64,000 bases of DNA, taken from IMG/VR virus record IMGVR_UViG_3300048925_000129; one strand, given 5' to 3'. Origin of the DNA: a virus. The translations under genes were made by a program, and so were the position numbers. Shown here one piece after another: positions 14,383 through 46,013 of this stretch. The stretch's first letter is position 1; each line of letters starts with the position of its first letter. The notes under the pieces are model-generated. The model did not search any database. It saw only the letters and a program-made list of their open reading frames with translations, and was not told the origin of the DNA.

Positions 14383-14468
14383 TGTAGTGTAAGGGGGAAT
14401 CGAACCCCCTGACCTTGCTCCAGTATTAATACTATCATCACAATGCTCTACCACTGAGCTATACACTT
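14383..14468 (-). ncRNA. tRNA-like RNA with enlarged anticodon arm
   Basis: D arm TAGCTCAGTGGTAGAGC, T arm GGGGGTTCGATTCCCCC, acceptor AGTGTA/TACACT. Confidence 0.7.
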
Positions 14469-15617: not shown

Positions 15618-16922
15618 TTATTCTCCATCAGAAACTCCTTGTTCAAGTTCTTTGGATTCCCCCTCAATAAACTTAGGAGATTTTAGTTTGAAGATCTCAT
15701 CTGTTTCAACTAATCTGATACAGATTCCCTCATCTACTTTACAGTCATCGTAGGACTTGTCTAAATATTTCTGTTTTAGGTAATCTAATAAATGGTCAGG
15801 GCTCGTTGATCCTAGGTCTTCAATGAATGGAGGTACTATCTCTCTGACCTTACCATTAAAGTACTCATCAACATATTTGATTCCATACTTATCACAGTAT
15901 CTCTTAACTGCCTCCCATGAGAACTCATAAACTACACCATCTGGATTGGTATAGGTAATCCTATACACAAAGATTTCGTAGTCAAATCCATAAGTAAAAT
16001 TATCTCCCTGAACACCTTTTCCTACAATCTCACCATAAATAGTGATCCCTTTTTCAAGATTTTGCCTGTGCATTTCCATTGCTCTCTTCCAAATGTTGTC
16101 AGAATAGAAACTTGGAGTGTGAGATTGCCAACCTATTTTCTCAGCTTCAACTCCTTTAGGGAGTCTTGATTTTGGTTTACCAGATGAGTGTATGTATCCC
16201 CATTGAGTTTTAGGTAGTGGAGTGATGTATTTGTCAATCAGTTTCTCAAACCAATTTAGCTCTTTTTTCACCAATACATGGCTCAGGATTAGTGAAGATC
16301 CATGATATTTTCTAGTAACAACAAATCTTGTATCACGGTCTTCAAACTTGTCTAGGTTTCTGGCAAAGTGTGCAGTATCAGAATGGAATCTGAATTGATT
16401 ATCCAGTAACAGGTCTTTCAATCTGTTTTCTTTAGGCTGCTTCTCACCTTTTGGTAATCCTGATTGCTTAACTGGTGGAACATACTTCTGACAAATTAAA
16501 AAGTCATCAAAGTGAGTAAAGACATCCCCTGTCTTTAAGAATCCAGCAGGATAAAGTCCTTCTTCATTTAGATAGTTTAAGGCAGTAAGTGGGAGTAGCA
16601 TACCATCAGAGATAGTATCTCTCAATTTAATAGCCTTAACCAACCTTCTTTTAGCAGAAATATAACCTCTTTGATCTGAATCTTTGTTAAGTTGACTCTC
16701 ATCATATAGGCTGTTATGATAGCAAAGTTCTTCTGCCAGTTGTGTACCTGCTACAAAGTAAAGCATTACATCTCCCTCTTTAACGTCTTTGGAGACAATG
16801 ACATTATTCCCAAATAACACTACTCTTTTGATGTTATCGGCATTTTTTATATCAAAAACTTGTCCAATTGTTACAACTGAACAAGGATAATTAAGTGAAT
16901 CTTCACTAACACTAAGTCTCAT
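15618..16922 (-). CDS. RNA ligase (DRB0094/Rnl5-like, N-terminal OB-fold)
   Basis: IKNADNI, ISDGMLLP; motif I RKYHGSS, IYGEIVG, EGICIR, FKLKS. Confidence 0.82.
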   Translation of the reverse strand: MRLSVSEDSLNYPCSVVTIGQVFDIKNADNIKRVVLFGNNVIVSKDVKEGDVMLYFVAGTQLAEELCYHNSLYDESQLNKDSDQRGYISAKRRLVKAIKLRDTISDGMLLPLTALNYLNEEGLYPAGFLKTGDVFTHFDDFLICQKYVPPVKQSGLPKGEKQPKENRLKDLLLDNQFRFHSDTAHFARNLDKFEDRDTRFVVTRKYHGSSLILSHVLVKKELNWFEKLIDKYITPLPKTQWGYIHSSGKPKSRLPKGVEAEKIGWQSHTPSFYSDNIWKRAMEMHRQNLEKGITIYGEIVGKGVQGDNFTYGFDYEIFVYRITYTNPDGVVYEFSWEAVKRYCDKYGIKYVDEYFNGKVREIVPPFIEDLGSTSPDHLLDYLKQKYLDKSYDDCKVDEGICIRLVETDEIFKLKSPKFIEGESKELEQGVSDGE

Positions 16923-28094: not shown

Positions 28095-28276
28095 TATTAA
28101 AGGTATTTACATCTGTTTAACATATCTTTGTGCTCTTCATAGGTTCCAATAAAGTAATATTGACCCCTAGAAGTGTGCAATTTAGTCACCCCTTTTGCAG
28201 ATAGACCAAACACAGGCAATAAGTAATTATACTGCTTTTCTGTGATCTTATATGAGTTATCCCGTGCCATGATATT

Positions 28277-28903
28277 CTATTTAAAATCGGTTTTATTATT
28301 TCTGAAATAAACCCATGTAGCAGACTGTACAATTAAAGGGCTTACATTTAGTTTTTCACCTGCCTTTTGATAAGCAGATACAAAGAACTCGTATTGAATT
28401 TTAGTCATACCCTGATAAAAATCATCTGTACATACTACACCCGTGGCAATACTCAATGCATGTCTATCAATGGTGATATTATCTCCATTGTTTGGGTGTA
28501 GAATATTCTTACAAAAGGCTGTTATTTTTCTACCATTAAGGATTTTATATGTTTGCTCTTCACTTTGTGCAAAATCCATAATTAATTGAGCCTTTTCACA
28601 AAATTGTCTCATGTGAGAACGTTGTTTGCCTCCTGATTTAATAAACAATTCTGCAATCCTTTTATTATCGTCCCATCTTTTAACAGGTGATAAGGCAGCA
28701 ATTACACCACATGCAACAAACAACTGTACATTATATGTTTTACTCAAATAGATGGCAAAATTGTGTGCCTCCTGATACCAGTCATATTTATCTGATTCAC
28801 TGCATAACATAAAAACAGACATGATATTTTTAGTTACTTTGTTAAGAGTGTATGACTTATGTTTGTATGTAATTTTTGGCATGGTTTTAAAATTTGCATT
28901 CAT
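28277..28903 (-). CDS. HhH glycosylase-like phage protein (DUF7178-like)
   Basis: WY..AH, VIAALSP..W..N, G.K..AF, TIDRHA, QSATW. Confidence 0.65.
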   Translation of the reverse strand: MNANFKTMPKITYKHKSYTLNKVTKNIMSVFMLCSESDKYDWYQEAHNFAIYLSKTYNVQLFVACGVIAALSPVKRWDDNKRIAELFIKSGGKQRSHMRQFCEKAQLIMDFAQSEEQTYKILNGRKITAFCKNILHPNNGDNITIDRHALSIATGVVCTDDFYQGMTKIQYEFFVSAYQKAGEKLNVSPLIVQSATWVYFRNNKTDFK

Positions 28904-35185: not shown

Positions 35186-35434
35186 CTACTCTATAAGAGC
35201 AGTAGTTGTATTGTTTTCTTTAATAATTTTTAATGACCCTTTAAACTGGAGGCTGCCTTTAGTATGACTACTGTCAGGGGTCTCCTTTGTTGTGAAGCCG
35301 ACTCTGGAATCTAGATGATCCACATAGTAAGTTTCACCTTTACACTTCACTACCCAGGCAGGAATGCTCTGGTCCTCGTTGTGTTTCTTATTGAAGTGGA
35401 ATACTATTCTGGAGCTATTACAAATTGTCTCCAT
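35186..35434 (-). CDS. hypothetical protein
   Basis: FHFNK..W.VK..G..Y.V.H. Confidence 0.65.
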   Translation of the reverse strand: METICNSSRIVFHFNKKHNEDQSIPAWVVKCKGETYYVDHLDSRVGFTTKETPDSSHTKGSLQFKGSLKIIKENNTTTALIE

Positions 35435-35684
35435 ACTTCTCTACAAGTTTAGTCACATAAGATTCAGAAATTTCCTTTCTCTTTGTTGTTTGTCTCTCCT
35501 TTCCTTTCAGAACCGAGTAAGCCTGGAAGAGATGTCTAAGCTCATACCTGTTAGTTTCTCTTTCCGAAACTGGATTTGTAGATGTTCTTTCTCCTGTAAA
35601 GGATTGTTTAATCTGAGGCTTAAGAGTTTTCTGTGCCTCTGATAATGTTTTTATTGCTTGTCTGATTGTTTCAAATTTTTTCAT
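35418..35684 (-). CDS. hypothetical protein co-transcribed with Pth2-like gene
   Basis: LRHLFQAYSVLKGK. Confidence 0.65.
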   Translation of the reverse strand: MKKFETIRQAIKTLSEAQKTLKPQIKQSFTGERTSTNPVSERETNRYELRHLFQAYSVLKGKERQTTKRKEISESYVTKLVEKYGDNL

Positions 35685-35691
35685 GATAATT

Positions 35692-36042
35692 TTAATTTAA
35701 TGTTAGATTAAGATTTTTAAATAAAGACTTGTGTTGAGATCTTGAGATTGCTTCGATGGCTACTGCCGTCATTTGGTTTCCTATGTCAGGTTCCAGGAAC
35801 TTATGATACTTGATTTCCAAGTCATCCAGTTTATGGAGTATCCTTTCAATTTTGGATTCCGAAGCTTCAAGACAACACAGGTAGTTACTACCCATCTGCC
35901 ACTGCTTAAATTCATCGTTAAACTTGACTGCAAAATCAGCCAATGCATGTGCACTTTGCACAACTTTGTAACCTGGAGTTAAATCATCTCTGGTGATGAT
36001 TGTCATAAACTCGTTACCTGTCTAAATACCTGTCTTTGTCAT
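35692..36042 (-). CDS. Pth2-like peptidyl-tRNA hydrolase, probable in-frame UAG at codon 7
   Basis: TRDDL.PG..VQSAHA, FLEPDIGNQMTAVA; upstream in-frame ATG 36042, TAG 36022-36024. Confidence 0.75.
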
Positions 36043-36061
36043 AATATAAAACTTTTGGTTG

Positions 36062-36134
36062 TTCTTTCAACGGGATTCGAACCCGTGACACACAGTTTTA
36101 GAGACTGCTGTTCTAACCACTGAACTATGAAAGA
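36062..36134 (-). tRNA. amber suppressor tRNA (CTA)
   Basis: Cloverleaf, anticodon arm GCAGT-CT-CTA-AA-ACTGT. Confidence 0.88.
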
Positions 36135-36138
36135 ATAT

Positions 36139-36203
36139 TGCTTCGTATAAGGACTCGAACCTCACCTGCTAACTGCCGTGCTCCCAATTACACCATCACG
36201 AAA
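36139..36203 (-). ncRNA. tRNA-like RNA with collapsed anticodon arm
   Basis: D arm TGGTGTAATTGGGAGCAC, T arm GAGGTTCGAGTCCTT, 14 nt between them. Confidence 0.6.
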
Positions 36204-36296
36204 AACTTATCTCTCCCACACGGCAATGCAGTTAAAATAAGATTGATATAAGTTAAGGAGGCTTGCCGACCAACCTTATTTGCCATCAATTTTTTG

Positions 36297-36368
36297 TAGT
36301 CCATAGGGGAGTCGAACCCCTCTTCTTAGATCGAAAATCTAATGTCCTAACCGATAGACGAATGGACC
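36297..36368 (-). tRNA. tRNA-Glu (TTC)
   Basis: Cloverleaf, TTAGA-TT-TTC-GA-TCTAA. Confidence 0.9.
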
Positions 36369-36374
36369 AAGTAC

Positions 36375-37194
36375 AAGCTACAGGTCTTGTTAGTTAATAT
36401 TCCACACCGAGTGCCTCAACCAAGGCTTTGGGAATCGAACCCTCTTCGTCTTTTTTCCAAATAAAAATGTTTTAAACTTTGTATTTGCTGTGTGTAGCTT
36501 TATCAAATTACCGTTTGATGTTAAAATTCCAATTTTTAGCTTTGTTTAATTTGCTGTAGGTAATTTTGTCAGATTGCATACTAAACGTGTGTTTGATTAA
36601 AATTCAAGTGTTTGTTTAATTTGCTGTTAGCAATCTTTTCAGAATAGTATGTTTGAGGATTTGAACCCCTTGAACTGTTTATGAGACAATTGTTTTAACC
36701 AAATTTTTTAGATTTGCTGTAACTATTCTTATCAAGTTTCTATTGTTTTTGGACTATTGCTCTACCAACTGAGCTACTGAAATCCTAAGACTCCAGAAGG
36801 GACTCGAACCCTTGACCCACAGTGTTACATTCCTAAATTTGCTGTTAGAAACTTTATCAAAACTCATTTTTTGTTTTATACGTTGTACTAACCACTATAC
36901 TATCTCCCAAATTTTTCTAGATTAACTTTGTTGGGAGAGGAGGAGTCGAACCTCCGTCTACGGCTCTGAATGCATAACTTTGTATTTGCTGTATGAGTTT
37001 TTATATATTCAGGTTACTTGGGGACGATAAAAGGTCCCGTTAAGTTAAGATTTAAGTCATTCTAGGACTTTCCTATACAATTTTACTTCTCACATACAGG
37101 ACCCGAAGTGTAGAGATGTCTGTGCTTTTGCATTCTACAGTTTCCGTTATTTGAATCAATTATAGTTGTGTGTTGTATTTGCTGATAGTAACCT
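36375..37194 (-). ncRNA. array of 7 Y-RNA-like (ACAGCAAA-stem) RNAs
   Basis: Units 36375-36500, 36505-36566, 36571-36636, 36641-36729, 36734-36854, 36859-37001, 37011-37194, each with own 7-9 bp terminal stem and conserved motif. Confidence 0.8.
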
Positions 37195-37206
37195 TATAAT
37201 AACACT

Positions 37207-37265
37207 GCAAAGATATGAAAACTTTTTGAGATATGCAAATCTTGCAGTGTTAAATTTATGTTAAA
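37207..37265 (-). promoter_or_regulatory. promoter for the RNA array
   Basis: TTTGCATAT..TATCTTTGC, TTTAACA x2. Confidence 0.8.
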
Positions 37266-37276
37266 GGATTTTCACC

Positions 37277-38953
37277 TTATAGAACTTCTACTCTTTGAAT
37301 CAGTTCCTGAGACAATGCCTCTCTCACTAATTCGGCTGCTGTTTTAATCTTGGTGTTAGTCAAGAATCCTACAGTGGTAGCAGAGTACCCACTGAAGTAG
37401 AATACGTTTTGAACGTCTCCGTAAGTTTCGAACTTCTCTCCAGTCCCTCTACCATAGTATCCTGACTGTAGGTTCCAAAGAACGATTACGAAGCTATCTA
37501 CATACTCTTTAGAGAACCCAGCTCTTCTCAAAGTTTCCTTTGCAGTTTCAACGTTAGTTTTACCTAATTGGCTTGGGTTAAATTCACTATCAGATATACA
37601 TAGGATTCCCGATGGGAAATCTTGTTCTGAAACTCCACTCTGTTTCAACCTAACGAATAGGTTAATTACTGATTGGAAGTTAGTACCCCCAATGTAAGAA
37701 GAGTGATCATTCTTCCATTTGTCTACTGGAGTTTGACCTTTCCAGGTATGCATCTGAGCATCAGAGTTGAACTCGATCCATGCATTTGCAAACTTACCAG
37801 TTAAGAACTCAGAGAAGTAAAGGGCAAGTGCTTTACCAATATCGTAGCAGCTCATCTTAGTTCCAGTAGCTACACTACTCATTGAACCAGATGTATCTCT
37901 TACAACAATTAGATTAGTCTGTCCAGATTCACCACCTTTTTGAACAAGAGTAGTAAACTGCTTGTTAATGGTTTCAACTTCATTAGGAGTAACTGATCTT
38001 CTAGACTGCTTACCTAGACCTTCGAATAACTCGTGAACGAATCCAGTATACTTCACCTCCTTAGTTTCTGGAGCCTTGATCCACTCTGCATACTTGTCAG
38101 AAAGTTTCTGGTTAAATAGGAACTTACCTTGAACAAGTTTTGAAAGAGCTCTACCATGAACTTTGTTGAAGTCAATTCTATCAAATTGCTTTGTAGAGAT
38201 TAGCTTCTGCCATTCATGAGCTGTACCAGAAGTTTTTAACTTTCTGTACTGCTTGTAAGTAGAACCTGCATTTTCTTTAGTACCAAACACAAGTGAGCAG
38301 ATCCACTTTGCAATCATTGTATCAGCCTGAGCTTCTACAGTTTTACAAGATGATTTAGCCTTGATTTGTGGCAAATACTTCTTAATTAAATCACTGGTGT
38401 TTGAATTTTCTAATCCTGAAAGGATAAGTTCACCAAACTTTTTCCAGTTTAATTTTCTTCCGTTCCAACCGTGATGAACAAGGTCATAAGAAAGCATCGT
38501 GAAGATATCTTTCCATGATCCTGCTGAGATCATCAATCCTACGTTAGCCCAGAAAGTTTTTTCATCCTTGAAGTGTAACCATAAGAATCTCATGATACCT
38601 TCATGTCTTAGCTCACCTCCTTTTTGTGATTCGGCAGTCATAGTACCATCTTGATACATTGTCTGTCTTGAGATCATTCTTAAGAAGATAGAGAAAGCTA
38701 CTGCATCCCACTTATCATCTGCCCATAACATTTCGGCATCTCTGGTGATATCCTGGAAAGATCTTGGTGCTTTGAATTTACCCATAACTCCGAACTGGTC
38801 AACTAATGTTGAACCTGTTGAGGAATATTTTAGGGCTCCGTTCCCTGATAGTGTTTCTGCTCCTTTCTTTAAAGATGCATTAACGAATGCAGATGTTGCT
38901 TGTGTGTTTTTTGGAGTTACCTCGAATAAACTTTTTTGTTTGCTGTCGAACAT
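37277..38953 (-). CDS. TROVE/Ro60-like helical plus vWA protein (DUF2828-like)
   Basis: NGA..YSSTG, GSWKD, C-terminal vWA VRDTSGSM, GGTNF, ISDSEFN, LWNL, SGYS. Confidence 0.8.
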   Translation of the reverse strand: MFDSKQKSLFEVTPKNTQATSAFVNASLKKGAETLSGNGALKYSSTGSTLVDQFGVMGKFKAPRSFQDITRDAEMLWADDKWDAVAFSIFLRMISRQTMYQDGTMTAESQKGGELRHEGIMRFLWLHFKDEKTFWANVGLMISAGSWKDIFTMLSYDLVHHGWNGRKLNWKKFGELILSGLENSNTSDLIKKYLPQIKAKSSCKTVEAQADTMIAKWICSLVFGTKENAGSTYKQYRKLKTSGTAHEWQKLISTKQFDRIDFNKVHGRALSKLVQGKFLFNQKLSDKYAEWIKAPETKEVKYTGFVHELFEGLGKQSRRSVTPNEVETINKQFTTLVQKGGESGQTNLIVVRDTSGSMSSVATGTKMSCYDIGKALALYFSEFLTGKFANAWIEFNSDAQMHTWKGQTPVDKWKNDHSSYIGGTNFQSVINLFVRLKQSGVSEQDFPSGILCISDSEFNPSQLGKTNVETAKETLRRAGFSKEYVDSFVIVLWNLQSGYYGRGTGEKFETYGDVQNVFYFSGYSATTVGFLTNTKIKTAAELVREALSQELIQRVEVL

Positions 38954-39627: not shown

Positions 39628-40020
39628 TTAGTAGTTCACTACTCTTACTGGTTTACCAAGATTTTTCATGAGGTCTATCATATTTTTTGTTCCTCTACTC
39701 TTGCCATCCCAAAAAGCTATAAGTACATCTCCTACTTCGGACATCTCTTCATTCCTAATTGGACCAGCAGCATTCCCATACATTTTCCAGTCGGCTGGCA
39801 TAGGAATAACATTGTGATTACTCTCAGCAGCATAAAGCTCTCCAAGTCCATCTGCTCCAAAGACATTAATACCATCTGATGTGGTAAAAGTCTTGGTTCC
39901 CGTGGAGCATCTTCCTGAAACTATTTCGATGTCTCTATGATTCCTAAGGAAATTATCACATTTTGTTTTAACGAGACGATAATCATTCAGATCTCTGCCT
40001 CCTGCTATTATGACTTTCAT
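39628..40020 (-). CDS. SLOG/DUF2493 (YspA-like) protein
   Basis: IIAGGR, GAD, AGPIRN.EM, AFWDGKSRGT. Confidence 0.88.
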   Translation of the reverse strand: MKVIIAGGRDLNDYRLVKTKCDNFLRNHRDIEIVSGRCSTGTKTFTTSDGINVFGADGLGELYAAESNHNVIPMPADWKMYGNAAGPIRNEEMSEVGDVLIAFWDGKSRGTKNMIDLMKNLGKPVRVVNY

Positions 40021-40442
40021 TAGGCTTCAGCAATTGCTTGCTTGATCTCATCAGCTTTATTAATACCTTTACACTCCTTGTTGATCATACCAAATAGTTT
40101 ACCTTCGTGGATGCCTGGATTATCTTCTTTAGTTTGTTTAACCAAAGACACTAATTCAGAATAGGTTAAGGCCTGAGGTAAGTACGACTCAAGAACTTTT
40201 AATTCTGATTCTTCCTTAACAGCAAGATCTATTCTTTTAGAAAGAGTGTAGGCATCAATAGATTGATTCCTTTTCTTAATTTCCCTAGAGATAAGTTTCG
40301 TAACTTCATCTTCAGTTAAATCTCTTCTTAAAGCTATTTTCTCGTTGTCTACTACACTTATTAAAAGTGACAGGGTTGTTTTTGCTACTATATCTTTTGC
40401 CTTTAAAGCTTTTACGTAGTCTTGTCTGATCTTTGATTCCAT
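40020..40442 (-). CDS. GatB/YqeY domain protein
   Basis: ALKAKD, EIKKR..SI..Y..R.DL..KE..E...L..YLP. Confidence 0.88.
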   Translation of the reverse strand: MESKIRQDYVKALKAKDIVAKTTLSLLISVVDNEKIALRRDLTEDEVTKLISREIKKRNQSIDAYTLSKRIDLAVKEESELKVLESYLPQALTYSELVSLVKQTKEDNPGIHEGKLFGMINKECKGINKADEIKQAIAEA

Positions 40443-45935: not shown

Positions 45936-46013
45936 TGGTGGGTCCACTGGGAATCGAACCCAGTCCTACAGTTTTTCAGACTATCGTGCAGACCTTAATT
46001 ACACCTTAGACCC
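45936..46013 (-). tRNA. tRNA-Phe (GAA)
   Basis: Cloverleaf, CCA encoded. Confidence 0.88.

Follow-up and report, generated by a model that had tools for sequence, protein, structure and literature searches.

Tandem Arrangement of tRNA(CUA) and a Pth2-like Gene

We analyzed a 64,000-nucleotide (nt) stretch of viral DNA, IMG/VR record IMGVR_UViG_3300048925_000129, hereafter called the window. On its minus strand a tRNA with the anticodon CUA lies directly upstream of a gene for a protein resembling the Pth2 family of peptidyl-tRNA hydrolases, and that gene carries an amber codon in frame shortly after its start. An original prediction, made from the sequence alone, took the pair for a dedicated read-through switch. 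We refer to the early in-frame stop as the gate and to the tRNA and the gene together as the module. Its parts are the following, with the Pth2-like open reading frame (ORF) given in numbers of amino acids (aa).

36061-36134, minus strand: suppressor tRNA, anticodon CUA (ARAGORN)
36043-36060, minus strand: A/T-rich spacer of 18 nt from the tRNA 3' end to the start codon (from the sequence)
36040-36042, minus strand: upstream ATG, the probable true start of the Pth2-like gene (from leader score and conservation)
36022-36024, minus strand: gate TAG, codon 7, with A as the +4 base (from the sequence)
36007-36021, minus strand: five post-gate codons, T-G-N-E-F, conserved at the protein level
36004-36006, minus strand: internal ATG, codon 13, a possible bypass start of a sub-lineage
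35692-36042, minus strand: Pth2-like ORF; decoding of the TAG would give 116 aa, of which the last 104, beginning at codon 13, are the core; it ends with TAA at 35694-35692

The tRNA(CUA) belongs to class I and is 74 nt long, with A as the discriminator base and without an encoded CCA. Its cloverleaf is normal, having a 7-bp acceptor stem and a 7-nt anticodon loop (CUCUAAA). The match to Rfam RF00005 at 36062-36134 (71.2 bits, E = 1.5e-13) is the top-scoring one of the 23-24 tRNAs in the window. ARAGORN labels this gene 'tRNA-Pyl', a label that reflects the anticodon alone, as is the case for its 'SeC' labels. Pairwise comparison with the phage's 22 other tRNAs revealed no clear parent; the best, those for Ile and Trp, agree with it at 53 of 74 positions.

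The original prediction placed the end of the tRNA about 20 nt before the ATG and the TAG in frame with the Pth2-like ORF. The distance is 18 nt and the TAG is codon 7 of that frame, which runs uninterrupted from the gate to the TAA, remaining in the zero frame across the TAG. The upstream ATG was also said to have the AT-rich leader typical of starts in this DNA, and this holds. A Shine-Dalgarno motif was found in none of the 66 gene starts examined in the window, the leaders being A/T-rich. With a leader matrix built from 57 ATG starts of the window, the ATG at 36042 scores 8.53, which places it at the 99.3rd percentile of all ATGs and ahead of 82% of the 57 reference starts. The internal ATG at 36006 scores -4.42, below all 57.

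Ten ATG...TAG patterns precede ORFs in the window, mostly in wrong frames, and one such pattern alone can arise by chance. The gate exceeds chance because it is conserved in relatives, as described below. Between 34300 and 37300 the other ATG...TAG patterns are all off-frame, leaving no second gated gene or mini-gene near the module. No RNA structure stimulating read-through is predicted after the gate (z = -0.65). Nor is there an RGPP/RAPP arrest leader near the module; the single RGPP motif of the window lies in a non-coding frame.

Conservation of the Gate

Loci from IMG/VR and the JGI metagenomes were pooled by means of a family profile and deduplicated, giving 135 loci. An ATG, 1-15 codons, a stop, 2-14 codons and then the domain follow one another in 116 of them, most commonly as 'M-K-stop-I...'. 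The early in-frame stop on which the predicted switch depends is thus conserved at homologous loci. The gate column holds TAG in L001, L002 and other close relatives. L107 (58.7% identity) has a TAA instead, one codon nearer the domain. The +4 base after the stop is A in 89 of the gated loci, G in 26, T in one and C in none, a purine therefore in 115 of the 116. According to classical work on E. coli, a purine after an amber codon favours suppression over termination.

The internal ATG is not conserved in the same way. At the Met13 column only six of the 116 gated loci have ATG; most encode Leu, and Ile or Val also occur. The closest complete relative, the IMG/VR contig G001, has CTA (Leu) at this column and no internal start there. 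Met at position 13 is retained in a sub-lineage made up of the window, L008, L101 and L102. Across the whole stretch from the stop to domain residue 10, 75 of the 116 lack any ATG, GTG or TTG, and 16 have an ATG. The post-gate residues T/V-G-N-E-F are kept through synonymous changes (GGT/GGA/GGG, AAC/AAT, GAG/GAA and TTT/TTC), and the stretch is therefore translated in this frame. Two loci, L119 and L120, have the stop directly following the start (ATG TAG ATT AAA...), an arrangement from which protein is possible by suppression only; L119 has a tRNA(UUA) downstream.

The gate is also found in a cultured phage. Tenacibaculum phage pT24 (L180, LC168164) has 'ATG AAA TAG ATA' ahead of a Pth2-like ORF at about 194,083-194,440, and a tRNA(CUA) at 191,520-191,593, 2.5 kb upstream of the gated ORF. 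The gated ORF ('MK*ITKNS...RIITRSDL') is left unannotated in the pT24 record, where the coding sequence BPT24_235 begins within the region. Xanthomonas phage XacN1 (L181, ORF364) and Stenotrophomonas phage RAS14 (L182, WAX21615) encode a Pth2-like domain without a gate. In these proteins of 261-279 aa, from cultured jumbo phages, the domain is C-terminal and follows an uncharacterized N-terminal domain. XacN1 also has an ORF resembling YqeY/'glutamyl-tRNA amidotransferase' four genes upstream of ORF364.

Linkage of the tRNA and Matching of Stop and Anticodon

An adjacent tRNA(CUA) at homologous loci was among the checks named with the original prediction, and a suppressor tRNA is present within 2 kb at 54 of the 63 fully flanked gated loci. 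All suppressor tRNAs found within 2 kb on either side (95 of 95) are co-oriented with the Pth2-like gene. As in the window, the tRNA ends 13-22 nt before the ATG in 12 relatives; this close placement, 18 nt in the window, is the tightest form of the arrangement. Discriminator bases are mixed across an alignment of 94 suppressor tRNAs.

We compared the gate codon with the anticodon of the accompanying tRNA. The pairs were TAG with CUA (73), TAG with UUA (3), TAA with UUA (4) and TGA with UCA (2); TAA was never paired with CUA. A UUA anticodon can read UAG by wobble, and no pair is a mismatch. The two TGA-gated phages have no suppressor in the 4-kb locus, and the whole contigs each have a tRNA(UCA), which is the sole tRNA of one contig and lies about 3 kb away in the other. 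The association of stop and anticodon gives p = 2e-5 by Fisher's test, a value uncorrected for phylogeny, and the independent stop/anticodon pairs on the protein tree are all concordant. The covariation is strong but not conclusive support for suppression of the gate by the phage tRNA.

Three further loci, L121 (2771-2844), L122 and L043 (2331-2404), have tRNAs with 6-nt anticodon loops beside their Pth2-like genes, which are ambiguous in ARAGORN. Next to a TAA-gated gene its call is 'Lys|Stop (tt)', and next to an ungated gene 'Arg|Pyl (ct)'. It is possible that these tRNAs are non-standard suppressors.

The Pth2-like Protein

The 104-aa ORF matches Pfam PTH2 (PF01981) from residue 1 to 101, covering positions 3-114 of the 115 in the profile, with E = 1.5e-4. 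At 22.4 bits the score is just under the cut-off of 23, and many close homologues have precomputed PF01981 matches. A profile of 60 homologues searched against the PDB found 24bt_A, a 'peptidyl-tRNA hydrolase', at E = 7.9e-8 and 2zv3_A at E = 0.096. The AlphaFold (AF2) model has a predicted local distance difference test score (pLDDT) of 91.3 and a predicted template-modelling score (pTM) of 0.85. When it was compared with the PDB by Foldseek, the top 13 matches were all Pth2 structures (3erj, 1wn2, 1q7s, 2zv3, 1rlk and 1xty among them), with E from 6e-8 to 3e-5 and TM scores of 0.6-0.77; the significant matches include only Pth2 structures. The protein is accordingly modelled with the Pth2 alpha/beta fold.

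Among the 60 homologues K26 is at least 90% conserved and D86 is invariant. In the alignment these two residues fall on the GK and D.G.T motif positions of the PDB Pth2 chains; the active-site residues of Sulfolobus Pth2 are K18 and D86. Hydrolysis of peptidyl-tRNA is a putative activity of the phage protein. In the AF2 model residues 1-10 are disordered. Strand beta-1 spans residues 11-18 and so starts two residues ahead of Met13; E11 and F12 are within this predicted strand.

Genetic Code of the Phage Lineage

The contig G001 (160,268 bp) has direct terminal repeats and is rated 100% complete. Its synteny with the window extends over the full length of the latter, at a nucleotide identity of about 85%; we used it to judge the approximately 100 kb beyond the window. 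Two more complete relatives, G002 and G003, are 157 kb and 180 kb long. Reading TAG as sense lengthens almost no ORFs of the window when the table 11 and TAG=Q ORF sets are compared. That TAG is otherwise a normal stop in the window, as originally stated, agrees with 16 of 105 greedy ORFs ending in it, five of them at least 100 aa long. Coding density under table 11 and with TAG as sense is 0.916 and 0.916 in G001, 0.922 and 0.909 in G002, and 0.881 and 0.892 in G003. TAG ends 13-28 genes (7-9%) in each of the three; the stops of G001 are 162 TAA, 21 TGA and 16 TAG. Each encodes exactly one suppressor tRNA, with the anticodon CUA. No RF-1 domain, PylS or Glu/Gln-tRNA synthetase is encoded in the complete relatives examined. 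The phage lineage uses the standard code and is not a recoded genome.

We also scanned the window and G001-G003 for in-frame TAG codons. The Pth2-like gene, with no nearby downstream start, was the sole credible case. Candidates in G001 at 77835, 28376 and 31655 proved to be adjacent genes or wrong frames. At 28097-28903 (minus strand) of the window, a 208-aa gene ends in TAG, and 59 further in-frame codons without a stop lead to the next gene, a layout kept in G001 at 28376. The 59-codon stretch is probably a separate small gene, with an ATG two codons after the TAG; if the suppressor is active, it would be a read-through extension too.

The gated gene is affected by how annotation treats the code. 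Table-11 gene callers truncate or miss it, as in the pT24 record, from which it is absent. Callers capable of code 15 read the gate as TAG=Q (P0021 and P0013 on short contigs, where the forms longer than 104 aa were checked). The loci L087-L090 and the proteins P0004-P0085 are the public-collection set of this gene; the fragments checked were treated as code 15 though the phages are probably standard-code.

A Proposed Stop-Gated Hydrolase Opened by a Phage tRNA

We propose a lock-and-key module in which the suppressor tRNA opens the Pth2-like gene of an otherwise standard-code phage, a reading to which we assign a probability of about 0.75. Translation of the hydrolase mRNA would start at AUG 36042, and the ribosome would reach the UAG at codon 7. 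The phage tRNA(CUA), probably cut from the same transcript and needing to be charged by a host synthetase, would decode the UAG to give the full 116-residue protein with its predicted Pth2 fold. If host RF1 were to win instead, the hexapeptide MTKTGI would be released as the 'off' outcome. Hydrolase output would then follow the amount of working suppressor tRNA relative to RF1. Cleavage at the tRNA 3' end, if it takes place there, would turn the spacer into a short mRNA leader, and AUG 36006 may, in the sub-lineage, supply a little of the 104-residue core independently of the suppressor. The tRNA(CUA) is presumably expressed, charged and able to read the gate codon. The dedicated read-through switch of the original prediction is supported by the conserved stop, the non-conserved internal ATG, the synonymous evolution of the post-gate codons and the matching of stop and anticodon.

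The original prediction put the purpose of such a switch in the balance between suppressor and RF1 activity. Most likely the gate scales peptidyl-tRNA-recycling activity to the level of stop-codon read-through; run-through by ribosomes and drop-off of peptidyl-tRNA are both expected to become more frequent with read-through. It could also hold the enzyme back until the tRNAs of the phage work. A more elaborate version, which we consider rather unlikely, is that the tRNA and the gated enzyme make up a self-contained feedback circuit in which the enzyme is made in proportion to read-through and acts on its products or on the suppressor's aminoacyl- or peptidyl-tRNA. If true, suppression would be kept to a fixed degree while the phage deliberately passes the UAG stops of host or phage genes; the circuit would be a tRNA-based analogue of RF2 autoregulation and would explain 'orphan' suppressor tRNAs in standard-code phages.

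Several observations weigh against the lock-and-key module. When the stop/anticodon pairs are counted on the protein tree, only three independent pairs remain on supported branches (six on all branches), with p = 0.25 by a sign test. No suppressor tRNA is present in the available DNA of 29 TAG-gated loci, many of which are short contigs. A distant subclade (31-37% identity) is ungated yet has a tRNA(CUA) 9-330 nt downstream; the gate is thus not obligatory, and the pairing of tRNA and gene predates the gate or extends beyond it. The 'Q' at the gate in public proteins comes from the TAG=Q translation of gene callers and is not independent evidence. A working amber suppressor should also extend the TAG-ending genes of the phage (7-9%) as well as host genes, a cost that is unexplained. 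Finally, the in-frame ATG at 36006 stands six codons past the TAG, and the Pth2 core could form from it without suppression.

This last point leads to the alternative that the 104-residue hydrolase is initiated internally at AUG 36006. The upstream AUG...UAG would then be a six-codon upstream ORF, neutral or modulating through ribosome occupancy or termination-reinitiation, and tRNA(CUA) would be irrelevant. The ATG is in frame, the Pfam PTH2 match begins at that very Met, table-11 gene callers give 104-aa proteins for the window gene and several relatives, and the Met is kept in the sub-lineage of the window, L008, L101 and L102. However, the codon is ATG at only six of 116 gated loci and CTA in the closest complete relative, and with 75 of the 116 lacking a canonical start after the gate, a start for reinitiation is conserved in the window's sub-lineage only. 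The codons between TAG and ATG are under protein-level constraint, E11 and F12 falling in the predicted strand beta-1. The leader of the internal ATG scores under all 57 reference starts, and internal initiation leaves the matching of stop and anticodon unexplained. We regard it as an unlikely account of the locus. Because of the poor leader and the constraint on the preceding codons, ATG 36006 is in our view a minor route that arose as Met, Leu, Ile and Val replaced one another in strand beta-1.

Read-through might also occur without the phage tRNA, through near-cognate tRNAs of the host or through depletion or inhibition of RF1 during infection. In that case the gate would respond to release-factor activity, and tRNA(CUA) would have another purpose. 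A stop so close to the start and a purine at +4 would favour release-factor-limited read-through as well, and the complete relatives have no release-factor gene. Such an explanation is very unlikely, as the type of stop changes with the neighbouring suppressor anticodon across TAG, TAA and TGA, the tRNA is tightly linked and co-oriented, and no stimulating RNA structure is predicted. Still less probable is genome-wide reassignment (code 15, TAG = Gln), with the gate as one ordinary sense codon among many. The phage does encode a tRNA(CUA), and public gene callers used TAG=Q for this gene on several short contigs. Yet the window and the three complete relatives are fully coding under table 11, with a gain of at most 0.01 from reading TAG as sense; TAG ends 13-28 genes per genome, no other in-frame TAG is credible, and the TAG is fixed at one N-terminal column instead of being scattered. 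The window by itself, with just one in-frame stop, could be taken for a decaying gene with a recent nonsense mutation or for a sequencing or assembly error. This is refuted by the presence of the gate in 116 non-redundant loci of independent metagenomes and in a cultured phage, and the downstream ORF is intact with its catalytic-type residues conserved.

Genomic Surroundings of the Module

Two further genes flank the module.

36296-36368, minus strand: tRNA-Glu(UUC), upstream of tRNA(CUA) (ARAGORN and Rfam)
35418-35684, minus strand: 88-aa ORF with no family match, starting 8 nt after the Pth2-like stop

The tRNA-Glu(UUC) and tRNA(CUA) probably share a transcription unit. In G001 the two are 4 nt apart (L001 2785-2857 and 2862-2936). 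The 160-nt gap between them in the window holds a tRNA-like remnant at about 36141-36205 (minus strand), with a T-arm-like GGTTCGAGTCC and partial acceptor pairing. The 88-aa ORF is probably co-transcribed with the Pth2-like gene.

The window is part of a tailed phage of about 160 kb, whose genes for terminase, portal and structural proteins are found on the plus strand beyond about 51.6 kb. A long minus-strand block contains the tRNA array and genes for an RNA ligase, a YqeY-like protein and a Ro-like RNA-binding protein. Neighbours of the tRNA array at 15618-16922 and 39628-40442 (minus strand) include the RNA ligase (phrog_968, PF09414), the YqeY-like protein (PF09424) and a SLOG/YspA-related protein (PF10686). 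Two tRNAs of the window stand apart in the searches. One at 45939-46013 (minus strand) scores 54.5 bits with Rfam and is absent from the ARAGORN list; the other, 'tRNA-Ile(GAU)' at 14384-14467 (minus strand), is unusually long at 84 nt and has the lowest Rfam score of the tRNAs (38 bits).

A 558-aa 'RNA-binding protein' (phrog_850, Pfam DUF7788) is encoded at 37277-38953 (minus strand). Downstream of it on this strand, 36730-36841 (minus strand) matches the Y RNA-like family YrlA (RF02553) with 39.4 bits and E = 7e-7, under the gathering score of 69. After this match come three tandem units of about 65-90 nt each at 36504-36728 (minus strand). Together, 36504-38953 looks like a phage Ro/Y-RNA-like module directly upstream of the block of tRNA-Glu, tRNA(CUA) and the Pth2-like gene.

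Relation to Known Systems

Stop-codon-recoded phages with suppressor tRNAs were reportedly described by Ivanova in 2014 and by Borges in 2022, with code 15 (TAG=Gln) and code 4 (TGA=Trp). The crAss-like and Lak phages are stop-recoded and have phage-encoded suppressor tRNAs (PMC9523058, PMC11210395). Such phages and the module share a phage-encoded tRNA whose anticodon matches a stop codon. It is expected to read that stop inside a phage gene, in a host with the standard code. Unlike them, the module belongs to a standard-code genome in which TAG ends 7-9% of genes, and its in-frame stop is in one gene only, fixed 1-15 codons after the start and beside the tRNA gene; it would work as recoding confined to this gene, a gate and no reassignment.

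The gene for release factor 2, prfB, senses its own product: ribosomes pass an in-frame UGA early in the gene by a +1 frameshift, which a Shine-Dalgarno-like element stimulates. Both prfB and the module have an early in-frame stop in a gene of termination or recycling, with output set, in the module presumably, by termination versus recoding. The module, however, stays in the zero frame, its phage uses no Shine-Dalgarno motifs, and the proposed competitor of termination is a dedicated tRNA. In programmed read-through of viruses (Q-beta A1, MuLV gag-pol, tobamoviruses), host near-cognate tRNAs produce C-terminal extensions at a few per cent, often with a downstream RNA structure. There, too, a viral protein needs a stop to be read as sense. 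The module differs in that the virus supplies the cognate suppressor, the N-terminal stop would act as an on/off gate, and no structure is predicted.

The selenocysteine and pyrrolysine systems resemble the proposed module in leaving the in-frame UGA or UAG of certain genes to a special tRNA. The module is not one of these systems. Unlike the pyrrolysine system, it comes with no PylS_Cterm match in the three complete relatives, and tRNA(CUA) has an ordinary elongator-type cloverleaf.

The closest known relatives of the enzyme are the Pth2 family (PF01981), whose archaeal and eukaryotic members (PDB 3erj, 1wn2, 1q7s/Bit1, 2zv3, 1xty) have the same fold (TM scores of 0.7-0.77) and the same GK..Q..H and D.G..T positions, and the 'peptidyl tRNA hydrolase' genes of cluster C mycobacteriophages. 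Compared with the Pth2 family the phage protein is very divergent (15-23% identity), and its gate is borne on a short disordered N-terminal extension. We found no published description of a suppressor-tRNA-gated Pth2 gene in the full-text literature searched; the module is recurrent and apparently unpublished.

Suppressor tRNAs of phages are usually explained by whole-genome stop reassignment, though many occur in standard-code phages. The module would give such a tRNA a conserved target, one translation-related gene locked by the very stop that the tRNA reads. In the three complete genomes of the lineage, all of standard code, no target of the suppressor other than the gated gene is visible. 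If confirmed, the module would be a natural tRNA-operated translational switch built from the parts used in synthetic amber-suppression gating, and it may be a step from which full recoding evolves.

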